Shown: positions 6,513 through 9,542 of the stretch, in pieces
Position numbering within the stretch: the first letter of the stretch is position 1
How the letters are laid out: each line of letters begins with the position of its first letter
Assembly: GCA_016840425.1 (NCBI GenBank)
Contig: JAEOSI010000071.1
Span: 1 to 9,635, forward strand
DNA length: 9,635 nucleotides
Direction: 5' to 3'
Origin: Candidatus Wukongarchaeum yapensis
Lineage (GTDB): Archaea; Asgardarchaeota; Wukongarchaeia; Wukongarchaeales; Wukongarchaeaceae
Translations under genes and position numbers: made by a program
Notes under the pieces: generated by a model
What the model was told of the DNA's origin: nothing
Database searches by the model: none
The model's input: the letters and a program-made list of their open reading frames with translations, nothing else

Positions 6513-6530
6513 AATAAACCTTTTATAAAT
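6513..6530 (+). promoter_or_regulatory. Putative BRE-TATA promoter
   Basis: AATAAACC-TTTTATAAAT, about 45 nt upstream of ATG 6575. Confidence 0.55.
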
Positions 6531-6574: not shown

Positions 6575-7453
6575 ATGAATAGCTTGGTTAAAGTTTTTAT
6601 TACAACGCCTTTAAAGGCTTCAAGCGAGCTTGCTGCCCAAGCTATAAGAAGCGAGAAGTATGATGCACTTTTTTTAACTTTTCATAAAGATATCGAGTAC
6701 TATCTTTATGACTTGGCTGAAGGAGAGCCACTCGAAACAATTGTAGAGAAAATTTTGAAAAAGAATTTAATTGCCGAGCCTTCTGCTGCCTGGATATATT
6801 GGGCTGAACCCGTGCTAAAAGCCCTGGAAGGCCTTTTTAAAATCAACCCTAGCGTGGAAATTTTATGCGTAGAAGAATCTTATGAACATGAGTATGCAAC
6901 TACTTGCAAGGTAGATCTTGCCGTTTTAGAGTTCAAAGGAATACTGGGCAGGGTCGATATTGAACAATGGAGGAAACTTTTACACGAGTATATTCTTTTT
7001 TCCCTACACTCTTCTCAGAAAAAAGTGGATTTCATAGCAGAAGAAGCAAAAAAACACAGGGAGAGTTTATGTATCAGTTTTAATAGCGGAAGCATCAAAC
7101 GTCTCTTTAAAATACTAGGAATCAAAGTTCAGCTTAAATACACCATGAAACCCTACTTCTTTTTACCCCCCCAAGTCTTACAAAGGGTTATAAGAAAAGA
7201 GATGATTTGCGGAGAAGCTGTGCCTGATAACGTATTAGAAGAGCTAATAGAACAGGATATTGACTTTATAAGCAACTACTTGCAATCCTCTAAAAACATT
7301 GATGAAGCATATGAAAAATGGATAAAAGTTAAAAGACCAAAAAAACCGTTAAAAAAAAAGAGGTTTAGAGCTGTTAGGGCAGGGACTGTCCGAATTTACG
7401 CCTGCGGAGACAGAGCCTCTACCGAGAGAGATCTCGGCAAGTTCAGTCGTTGA
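6575..7453 (+). CDS. Hypothetical protein (292 aa); last ~33 codons overlap an IS200/IS605 remnant
   Basis: Long ORF with its own promoter-like signal and globular composition up to about EAYEKW. The tail (RAVRAGTVRIYACGD...) is read from tnpB-tail-like DNA. Confidence 0.8.
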   Translation: MNSLVKVFITTPLKASSELAAQAIRSEKYDALFLTFHKDIEYYLYDLAEGEPLETIVEKILKKNLIAEPSAAWIYWAEPVLKALEGLFKINPSVEILCVEESYEHEYATTCKVDLAVLEFKGILGRVDIEQWRKLLHEYILFSLHSSQKKVDFIAEEAKKHRESLCISFNSGSIKRLFKILGIKVQLKYTMKPYFFLPPQVLQRVIRKEMICGEAVPDNVLEELIEQDIDFISNYLQSSKNIDEAYEKWIKVKRPKKPLKKKRFRAVRAGTVRIYACGDRASTERDLGKFSR

Positions 7454-7490
7454 AACAGGAATCTCCCTACGATAGCTGGGAGTAGTTCAC
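7353..7490 (+). mobile_element. IS200/IS605-family (IS1341/tnpB) 3' remnant with right end
   Basis: A shifted frame (7353-7475) reads KKRGLELLGQGLSEFTPAETEPLPREISASSVVETGISLR*, matching the typical TnpB C-terminal tail (G.G..E.TP.E...ASS.VE.G). Subterminal hairpin CTCCC...GGGAG followed by TAGTTCAC, ending in the TCAC right-end tetranucleotide. No RuvC, zinc-finger, tnpA or left end is visible. Confidence 0.75.
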
Positions 7491-7506
7491 AAAGTTATAA
7501 ATATCA
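7376..7506 (+). ncRNA. Putative orphan TnpB omegaRNA (reRNA) scaffold plus ~16-nt 3' guide
   Basis: Hairpin GGGCAG-GGA-CTGTCC. ACGCCTGCGGAGA motif, with CCTG (7401-7404) able to pair with CAGG (7456-7459) and GGAGA (7406-7410) with TCTCC (7462-7466). GNRA hairpin CCGAGA-GAGA-TCTCGG (7422-7437). Guide position 7491-7506 = AAAGTTATAAATATCA. Confidence 0.6.
7491..7503 (+). promoter_or_regulatory. BRE-TATA-like element immediately 3' of the IS right end
   Basis: AAAG-TTATAAATA. A second candidate TATA, TTTATTAA (7540-7547), lies closer to sufC. Confidence 0.45.
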
Positions 7507-7581
7507 CAAATGAAAGAATATAAAGTCCAAGAGAACCAGTTTATTAAGTATAGATATTCTGGAAGTAAAACGGGGATAAAA

Positions 7582-8331
7582 ATGTTGGAAGTTAGAGATC
7601 TTAGCATTGAAGTGGGAGGAAAAGATCTTTTACATGATATTAACATAAATATTCCAGAAGGGGAAACACACGTCTTATTTGGTCCTAATGGATCAGGTAA
7701 AACATCTATTATAATGGCAATTTTGGGATTTAAAGAATACAAAATTACCAAAGGTAGTATAATTTTTAAAGGTAAAGATATTACACAATTACCTACACAC
7801 GAACGAGCGAAAATGGGAATAGGTATCTCTTTTCAAAGGCCTCCTTCGATACCTGGGTTAAAAACCCGTAAAGTTGTTGAAATATGTGCTAAAAATAGTA
7901 ATGGGGATGTTAACGTATCCGAATTAGCAAAAATGCTAAACTTAGAAAAATTCTTAGACAGAGATCTAAATATCGGGTTTTCAGGCGGAGAAATAAAACG
8001 ATCTGAAATATTGCAATTGTTAGCGCAAGATCCTGATTTGGTTTTATTAGATGAACCGGAATCAGGAGTTGATTTAGATAATATTTCACTGTTAGGTAAT
8101 ATGATAAATCATCTTTTGCTTAAAGATAAACCATGTTATGAACGAAAAAAGCTAGAATTTAAAAAGTCTGGTTTAATTATTACTCATACAGGTCATATTT
8201 TGGATTATGTTAGATCAGACAAAGGGTATGTTTTATGCGAAGGAACGATTCAATGTCAAGGTAATCCAAGAGAACTATTGGAAAATATTAGAAAAGTAGG
8301 ATATGAAAAGTGTTTCGAATGTCCAATTTAG
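7582..8331 (+). CDS. sufC: Fe-S cluster assembly ABC ATPase SufC (SMS-type SmsC)
   Basis: Walker A GPNGSGKT, signature FSGGE, Walker B LLDEPESG, H-loop IITHTG, C-terminal C-x18-C-x2-C. Start moved from 7510 to ATG 7582 (GGGGA SD; MLEVRDLSIEV is a typical N-terminus). Confidence 0.96.
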   Translation: MLEVRDLSIEVGGKDLLHDININIPEGETHVLFGPNGSGKTSIIMAILGFKEYKITKGSIIFKGKDITQLPTHERAKMGIGISFQRPPSIPGLKTRKVVEICAKNSNGDVNVSELAKMLNLEKFLDRDLNIGFSGGEIKRSEILQLLAQDPDLVLLDEPESGVDLDNISLLGNMINHLLLKDKPCYERKKLEFKKSGLIITHTGHILDYVRSDKGYVLCEGTIQCQGNPRELLENIRKVGYEKCFECPI

Positions 8332-9542
8332 ATGATTTTAATTTAAAGGCAAAAAAAGCAAAATCTAAGGAAGGTTTATCGGTGGACTCTATATCTATTA
8401 AAGCTTATAAAGCTAAAACAGAAGAGAGAGCGTATATTGATGATCTTGATAGCTTACCATATGATGAAAAACAAACCATGCTTGAAGCAGGCATAGATAC
8501 AACTCAAAAGCAAAGATCCGGCACGTTTGTACAAATGGATCATTCTGTTATCCATGCTTCCACGTTAGAGAAAGGATTAGAAGTCATGAGTATTAAAGAT
8601 GCATTAGCTAAGTACGATTGGTTAAAGGACTATTGGTGGAAAACTATTGCTGTAGATAATGATAAATATACGTCACAAGCAGAATTAGAATTACATAACG
8701 GGTATTTTCTGCGAGCATTGCCGGGTACTAAAGAGATATTTCCCGTTCAAGCATGTTTGTATTTAAGCATTGAGGATCTTAAACAAAATGTCCATAATAT
8801 TGTCATGGTGGAAGAAGATGCTGAATTACATGTTATTACAGGATGTTCCGTAGGGTCTCATGTTAAAAGTGGTCTTCATATTGGTGTTTCTGAATTCTAC
8901 GTTAAAAAAAACGCTAAGTTAAGCTTTACCATGATCCATAACTGGGCAGAGAACGTTAAAGTGAGACCAAGAAGTTACGGAATAGTCGAGGAAAATGGTA
9001 TGTTTTTATCAAATTATATATCTTTGAAACCAGTATCTGATTTACAAATGTATCCTACTGTGAAATTAGTTGGTAAAAATGCAATAGCTAGGTTAAATTC
9101 TATTCTTGTAGCCCAAAAAGGATCTAATCTAGATGTAGGTTCGAGAATAATATTAGACGCTGAAAATTCAAAAGGTGAAGTTATTTCAAGAACGATAAGT
9201 AAAGGTGGAAATATTTGGGCGAGAGGGCACCTGATAGGTAAAGCCAAAGGCATAACAGCACATCTCGAATGTAACGGTCTTATACTTGATGAAGAAGGAT
9301 CTATTAGGGCTATTCCAGAATTAGAAGCTCATTTACCCGATTTAAGAATGTCTCACGAGGCTGCAGTAGGTAAAATAGCCCAAGATCAGATAGAATATCT
9401 CATGGCAAGAGGATTATCTGAGGATGAAGCCACAGCTACTATTGTTCGGGGATTTTTGGATGTAGATATCAAAGGCTTGCCACCTCAATTAAATAAACAA
9501 ATTAAGAAAATAATTGACATTGAAGGTGAAAAGTTCTTATAA
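8319..9542 (+). CDS. sufB: Fe-S cluster assembly scaffold SufB/SufD-family protein (SMS-type SmsB)
   Basis: SufBD beta-helix motifs: HNIVMVEEDAELHVITGC, HIGVSEFYV, MIHNW, HLECNGLIL, IPELE, SHEAAVGKI, YLMARGLSEDEA, IVRGFL. Overlaps the sufC stop by 13 nt, consistent with an operon. Confidence 0.95.
   Translation: MSNLDDFNLKAKKAKSKEGLSVDSISIKAYKAKTEERAYIDDLDSLPYDEKQTMLEAGIDTTQKQRSGTFVQMDHSVIHASTLEKGLEVMSIKDALAKYDWLKDYWWKTIAVDNDKYTSQAELELHNGYFLRALPGTKEIFPVQACLYLSIEDLKQNVHNIVMVEEDAELHVITGCSVGSHVKSGLHIGVSEFYVKKNAKLSFTMIHNWAENVKVRPRSYGIVEENGMFLSNYISLKPVSDLQMYPTVKLVGKNAIARLNSILVAQKGSNLDVGSRIILDAENSKGEVISRTISKGGNIWARGHLIGKAKGITAHLECNGLILDEEGSIRAIPELEAHLPDLRMSHEAAVGKIAQDQIEYLMARGLSEDEATATIVRGFLDVDIKGLPPQLNKQIKKIIDIEGEKFL

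Follow-up and report, generated by a model that had tools for sequence, protein, structure and literature searches.

A probable recent scar of an ISDra2-like transposon, retaining the omegaRNA scaffold, at the 3′ end of an unrelated gene upstream of sufCB in an Asgard-type archaeon

The stretch of DNA analyzed here, referred to as the window, comprises 9,635 nucleotides of Candidatus Wukongarchaeum yapensis, whose 2.16-Mb genome is assembled in 277 contigs. On its plus strand lie an open reading frame for a 292-aa protein (P0001, positions 6575 to 7453), sufC (7582 to 8331), which encodes an ABC ATPase, and, 3′ of sufC, sufB/D (8310 to 9542). The first of these reading frames is chimeric. Residues 1 to ~260 are native, and the last ~31 residues (..KKKRFRAVRAGTVRIYACGDRASTERDLGKFSR, then the stop codon at 7453) derive from a transposon remnant and replace the native tail LPHPPNQRNSLNEYYKNNTIF. 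The native orthologs, which are present in a congener (G001) and in a sister MAG of 97 to 99% identity (L090), are 281 aa long and end in ..LKLPHPPNQRNSLNEYYKNNTIF. Sequence searches with the 292-aa protein recovered its own cluster and one relative of 85% identity only, and Pfam assigned it no family, including none with a nucleic-acid-binding function. The distance from this gene to sufC is now 128 nt. The longest reading frame for sufC opens at 7510, but the ATG at 7582 yields the usual MLEVRDL start and is the likely initiation site.

Homology to an IS family extends in the window from position 7356 to position 7490, with a 3′ limit that falls exactly at ..TAGTTCAC, and this segment has a G+C content of ~50% versus ~33% for its background. 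Positions 7356 to 7475 on the plus strand correspond to codons 358 to 397 of a tnpB gene plus its stop codon. Indeed, a tblastn search with an intact TnpB protein encoded elsewhere in the genome (contig C59) matches the window at aa 358 to 397 with 85% identity, which is the tnpB-tail match that the original prediction had proposed to look for. No stop codon interrupts the tnpB frame of the remnant (KRGLELLGQGLSEF...ISLR, then stop), which starts just past the third RuvC Asp motif (ERDYN). It is +1 relative to the frame of the host ORF, in which the remnant is thus not read as tnpB. The right end finishes at 7486 to 7490 with the bases TTCAC. These matches indicate that the segment combines the final 40 codons of an ISDra2-like tnpB gene with the transposon right end, and so amounts to a complete omegaRNA scaffold.

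The deletion junction resides in a run of nine A nucleotides (7351 to 7359). Homology to the host DNA of relatives stops at 7354, as seen in both the congener and the sister MAG, and IS homology starts at 7356; the junction cannot be placed to a single base because it sits in this run. The DNA 5′ of 7354 is the host gene, collinear with its relatives. No tnpB codons 1 to 357, tnpA gene, or left end are present in the window, where none of the three left-end types of the genome gave a match. Because a left end is missing, the remnant is immobile. The right-end flank, or would-be 16-nt guide (AAAGTTATAAATATCA), occupies positions 7491 to 7506 on the plus strand. Thus, the core of the original prediction, a TnpB 3′-end and right-end (omegaRNA) module fused to an unrelated gene with the nuclease gene, tnpA, and left end absent, is borne out by the tblastn match and by ~26 related copies found by blastn. 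Its proposed span of 7353 to 7506 holds for the remnant plus the 16-nt flank, with the IS homology proper confined to 7356 to 7490.

The ~26 strong copies lie in the genome’s own contigs, with E values down to 1e-56, and all share a sharp right-end terminus, ..(T/C)AGTTCAC, beyond which their flanks diverge. Eleven immediately follow a TnpB zinc-ribbon domain (PF07282), and in these the tnpB frame crosses the repeat (..VVLKRGLEELLGQGLSEFTP..VVE.GS..R, then stop) and terminates 15 nt before its end. The repeat therefore represents the last ~40 tnpB codons plus the right end. Two copies, on contigs C59 and C137, follow full-length TnpB genes (397 aa each) with intact RuvC residues, wherein the motifs GIDVG or GIDMG, AVEKL, and RDYN retain the D/E/D triad; this residue-level check covers the TnpBs that carry the window-type scaffold. 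The C59 protein aligns over residues 7 to 370 with the ISDra2 TnpB structures 8H1J, 8BF8, and 8EXA (E ~1e-43), and the equivalents of D191, E278, and D361 are conserved in it and also kept in the C137 protein. The roles of D191 and E278 in ISDra2 TnpB have been described (PMC8612924). Only one good Y1 tnpA gene is found in the genome. For the intact tnpB on C59 (C59:5600–6012, L010), none of the three left-end types is recognizable, and the DNA upstream of the gene is unique in the genome.

The same genome harbors about 10 to 12 protein-free mini-elements of ~211 nt, one example being L023:1399–1603 (contig C77:2983–3187). Others reside on C77, C253, C201, C168, C144, C88, C177, C147, and C160, and hybrids are present on C175 and C268. 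Each is laid out as a left-end hairpin, an AT-rich spacer, a shortened scaffold, and the right end, where the central GAGA hairpin of the scaffold has been swapped for a shorter GGAU/AUCC stem. An empty site for one mini-element in the congener (L057, about 1884 to 1934) places the insertion immediately 3′ of TTTAA and defines the element ends as CTTCTTCGG.. to ..GTAGTTCAC, with no target duplication. The left-end flanks of at least 10 copies concur on the same motif. Judging from this empty site and these flanks, the TAM of the IS family is TTTAA.

In several respects the family resembles ISDra2 of Deinococcus radiodurans, wherein the RNA scaffold likewise overlaps the last ~40 tnpB codons and the right end, the guide is taken from the flank, and the element inserts 3′ of a 5-nt motif and duplicates no target sequence. 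The homology of the intact TnpBs to the three ISDra2 structures, with equivalents of all three catalytic residues, adds to this likeness. The differences are that the family uses TTTAA in place of the ISDra2 TAM TTGAT, closes its right end with TTCAC, and resides in an archaeon, and that the window copy is devoid of tnpB codons 1 to 357 and of the left end.

A structural model for the scaffold was derived from two alignments. The first (A1) contains 29 copies from the window’s genome and the congener, and was used to build a covariance model (R1). The second (A2) contains 31 copies from 13 genomes. The scaffold core spans positions 7377 to 7490 on the plus strand, a stretch that is also kept in the protein-free mini-elements, and comprises five helices. 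Helix 1 is a 5′ hairpin (7377–7391), helix 2 pairs CCTG (7401–7404) with CAGG (7456–7459), helix 3 joins 7405–7416 to 7441–7452, helix 4 is a hairpin with a GAGA loop (7422–7437), and helix 5, whose arms covary, is the right-end terminal hairpin (7463–7482). In A2, an alignment fitted to the model, which favors structure yet leaves a large margin, 92.2% of cells in the five nested helices are paired compared to 69.9% for shuffles and 34 to 45% for slid partners, compensatory changes occur in 23 of the 31 pairs, and the covariation score is 0.554 versus 0.183.

Four pairings of the original prediction, namely the 5′ hairpin, CCTG/CAGG, the GAGA-loop hairpin, and the terminal hairpin, are retained in this covarying model. 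Its CCTG/CAGG pairing had been proposed to be pseudoknot-like and turns out to be an ordinary nested helix, and its GGAGA/TCTCC pairing was rejected, given that it is paired in 58% of cases, which is the level of shuffles, and exhibits no compensatory changes. Another possible pseudoknot, between GAAUU (7392–7396) and AGUUC (7484–7488), is 83.6% paired at positions that are nearly invariant. The single-sequence folding energy of the scaffold is unremarkable (z = −1.2). Comparison with curated RNA models, another check suggested with the original prediction, matched no Rfam 15 family anywhere in the window at E ≤ 1. R1 finds 41 matches in the window’s genome, where the window copy scores 158 bits by construction. 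Of the 41 genomes sampled from the phylum, 18 gave matches to R1, the richest of them 57.

The history of the locus can be read by comparison with the sister MAG, which carries an IS-free allele. There the order is the gene (281 aa), a 1.07-kb AT-rich spacer, TTTAA at 7851 to 7855, the flank, and sufC. Directly after this TTTAA stands AAAGTTATAAATACCA.., which is the right-end flank of the window with 15 of 16 bases identical; the sole mismatch is at guide position 14. The family TAM in the IS-free allele thereby occupies exactly the position where an insertion would put the present right end of the window.

We propose that the ancestral locus consisted of the 281-aa gene, the spacer, TTTAA, AAAGTTATAAATA.., and sufC, and that an IS of the genome-filling family inserted 3′ of that TTTAA, a site indicated by the fact that the IS-free allele has TTTAA directly before the window’s flank. 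A single deletion of ~2.2 kb would then have removed the last 20 codons of the gene, the spacer, the TAM, the left end, and tnpB codons 1 to 357. This amounts to ~1.07 kb of host DNA and ~1.16 kb of IS DNA (left end to codon 357, as measured on C137), and would have joined codon ~261 of the gene to tnpB codon 358. Insertion followed by deletion is the most parsimonious reading of the allele comparison. Pattern scans for a full-IS intermediate upstream of sufC gave no hit in genome contigs or in a first scan of metagenome contigs, and a scan with a shorter pattern returned 36 loci, none related to the window; the collection scanned may lack records close to the window’s genome.

The MAG is fragmented and rich in this IS repeat, features that could give rise to a chimeric contig joined inside the repeat. 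However, the left junction is at the edge of the repeat and has only a few A nucleotides in common with it. Furthermore, the left junction is bridged by independent marsh metagenome contigs (X3 record 20, 7034–7413) and the right junction in four runs, with junction-bridging metagenome contigs coming from at least three studies, and another MAG (L091) shows the same sequence at both junctions. The samples in which the locus occurs (X1 to X5) are from marine sediment and marsh. The bridging contigs and the identical junctions rule out an assembly artefact, to which we assign a negligible probability.

The scar appears to be young. It is absent at this locus from both the congener and the sister MAG, and the protein cluster contains seven 292-aa scar alleles that are 99 to 100% identical alongside five native alleles of 281 aa; one cluster member bears the label Candidatus Hodarchaeota. 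Among the scar alleles, the single change inside the scar is G270E, which at the RNA level converts G28 in the helix 1 triloop to A. Because the scar alleles have diverged by at most 1%, an intact 135-nt scaffold is expected even without selection. We infer that the scaffold is intact since the event is recent and has left too little time for decay. Scar and IS-free alleles coexist in public assemblies. On the strength of these allele comparisons, we consider it probable that the window segment is a recent scar of a tnpB-only IS200/IS605 element related to ISDra2 and serves no host function.

Five remnants in the genome, located on contigs C239, C54, C164, C125, and C45 (the window), are 5′-truncated, sit in unique DNA, and have no left end. 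Four of them break at tnpB aa 251, 311, 342, and 358, the fifth is a decayed copy (C125), and the window carries the shortest of the five. Taken together they read as successive stages of decay, not as a cut made precisely around the RNA module. All five left-end-less remnants keep their right end and scaffold, and no remnant inside a contig retains the 5′ part only, a 5:0 bias that comes from few cases and an incomplete left-end census. This asymmetry, for which neutral decay alone offers no account, hints at a preference for keeping the RNA module.

The original prediction had gone further by proposing that the RNA module was selectively retained as a stand-alone or domesticated guide RNA, which might work with a TnpB-family protein encoded elsewhere, or else with the 292-aa protein. 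Cognate TnpB genes with matching scaffolds, and further orphan copies, are indeed found in the genome, as it had suggested looking for. In a TldR-like version of this reading, a nuclease-dead TnpB relative would use the guide to regulate sufCB or another promoter. TldR systems do exist (Wiegand et al., PMC10705468), and the window resembles them in that an intact TnpB-type scaffold lies outside a functional transposon and adjoins the promoter region of sufCB. However, linkage of scaffold and gene is limited to the very young clade of 99 to 100% identical alleles and does not extend to the congener or even to the 97 to 99% identical sister MAG; this and the series of breakpoints leave selective retention unsupported. 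A nuclease-dead partner of the TldR kind is not seen among the cognate TnpBs of the window scaffold, which keep all three catalytic residues, and the guide has no TAM-flanked target in the host, neither in situ nor at other matches. A partnership with the 292-aa protein finds no footing in a polypeptide that belongs to no nucleic-acid-binding family and merely reads the remnant in the wrong frame. Domestication is therefore a highly improbable explanation.

The promoter assigned by the original prediction to positions 6513 to 6530 was a bacterial-type guess for an archaeon. A sigma-70 promoter and terminator scan, which applies a bacterial model to an archaeal genome, gave three promoter-like sites versus 3.1 expected. 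The genome encodes two TBP domains, which are otherwise common only to archaeal control genomes. The scaffold is on the sense strand of the gene’s mRNA and no oligo-T stretch precedes sufC; therefore, read-through transcription is plausible. By this arrangement, the scaffold is probably transcribed.

If so, the RNA could be excised and loaded in trans by the intact TnpBs from C59 and C137, by analogy with PATEs. TnpB excises its omegaRNA from mRNA (PMC10278001), and the omegaRNAs of protein-free elements are thought to serve TnpB in trans (PMC10055086). Trans-usable omegaRNAs on protein-free elements are therefore already described in that work. The window copy shares with PATEs (Meers et al. 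2023) a scaffold without a nuclease gene of its own, usable only by a TnpB from elsewhere, and the genome contains about 10 to 12 true PATEs of ~211 nt with both ends and no ORF. Unlike these, the window copy has no left end, cannot be mobilized, and stems from a deletion that also took host DNA.

What such an RNA could target is constrained by the genome sequence. The only exact match to the 16-nt guide is its own flank, and because this is preceded by GTTCAC rather than TTTAA, a complex of TnpB with the scar RNA has no target in its own genome. Matches in trans within the window’s genome do not exceed chance level: the next-best one carries a single mismatch and is not in register with TTTAA, and roughly one match of that quality is expected at random. 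The IS-free allele found in sister strains is the only sequence such a complex would match, a situation common to all IS200/IS605 insertions.

This predicted match is central to a different view of the remnant, in which the scar is an active selfish module whose omegaRNA is loaded in trans and which homes without TnpA or a left end. An intact TnpB would cut the IS-free allele, which has TTTAA and a 15/16 guide match, on other chromosome copies or on incoming DNA, and repair from the scar allele would copy both deletion and scar. The scaffold is complete and in the sense orientation of an expressed-looking gene, the cognate TnpBs are intact, the IS-free allele offers TAM and target, and scar and IS-free alleles are found side by side in public assemblies. 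Moreover, homing by TnpB and the trans use of omegaRNAs are established (PMC10055086; PMC8612924). Retention of right end plus scaffold in five of five left-end-less remnants, and of the 5′ part in none, also fits, although this bias rests on few cases with an incomplete left-end census, and guide position 14 is mismatched against the single IS-free allele seen. On balance we regard an active selfish module as unlikely. The specific proposal that a left-end-less remnant still targets the IS-free allele, so that the scar and its linked 2.2-kb deletion could spread in the absence of TnpA through cleavage followed by gene conversion, we hold to be slightly more doubtful still. If true, it would also explain why the scaffold is retained in all five left-end-less remnants, and truncated IS ends would count as active selfish elements.

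The preferred reading remains that of an ordinary IS200/IS605 (ISDra2-like) scar of recent origin, with a reconstructable history and perhaps a continuing role as a trans source of omegaRNA for TnpB. The main value of this result is negative: an orphan TnpB scaffold beside a promoter resembles a domesticated regulator, and the alleles point to recent insertion and deletion. The locus also provides a clean worked example, since one can still recover the IS-free allele with its TAM, the flank of the right end, and the breakpoints of the deletion. In addition, it is a record of a large family of ISDra2-like TnpB proteins and omegaRNAs, protein-free mini-elements included, in Asgard-type archaea.

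Several further observations concern the DNA around the scar. The 1.07-kb spacer that is lost in the window lineage (L090:6847–7850) is 93% conserved between the sister MAG and the congener, which is the level of coding DNA, and contains two G+C-richer islands. A weak match to the C/D-box snoRNA family RF00328 is located on the minus strand at L090:7024–7111 (26.5 bits against a gathering score of 45). Deletion of the spacer, as judged from these sequence features, may have removed a small RNA or a small gene. In the sufC leader (window 7517–7561 versus L090 ~7882–7889), net indels amount to ~35 nt, and the sequences are otherwise 99% identical.

The sufCB genes are present at this locus in the window lineage and in the sister MAG (L090:7830–10097), and absent from the congener (L044) and from the 85%-identical relatives (L087 to L089). 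Where they are missing, a gene for a ~630-aa protein with a metallo-beta-lactamase fold directly follows the host gene. The best match to sufC in the congener, whose locus has no sufCB, is only 45% identical. These locus comparisons show that an Fe-S assembly operon, sufCB, is polymorphic for presence at this site. The metallo-beta-lactamase gene lies downstream of sufCB in both L090 and L091, and its homolog in the window’s genome is on a separate contig (C94:7417–7695) whose end is 280 nt upstream of the gene. The window contig ends after sufB/D, and the separation of the ~630-aa gene is therefore an assembly break rather than a rearrangement.
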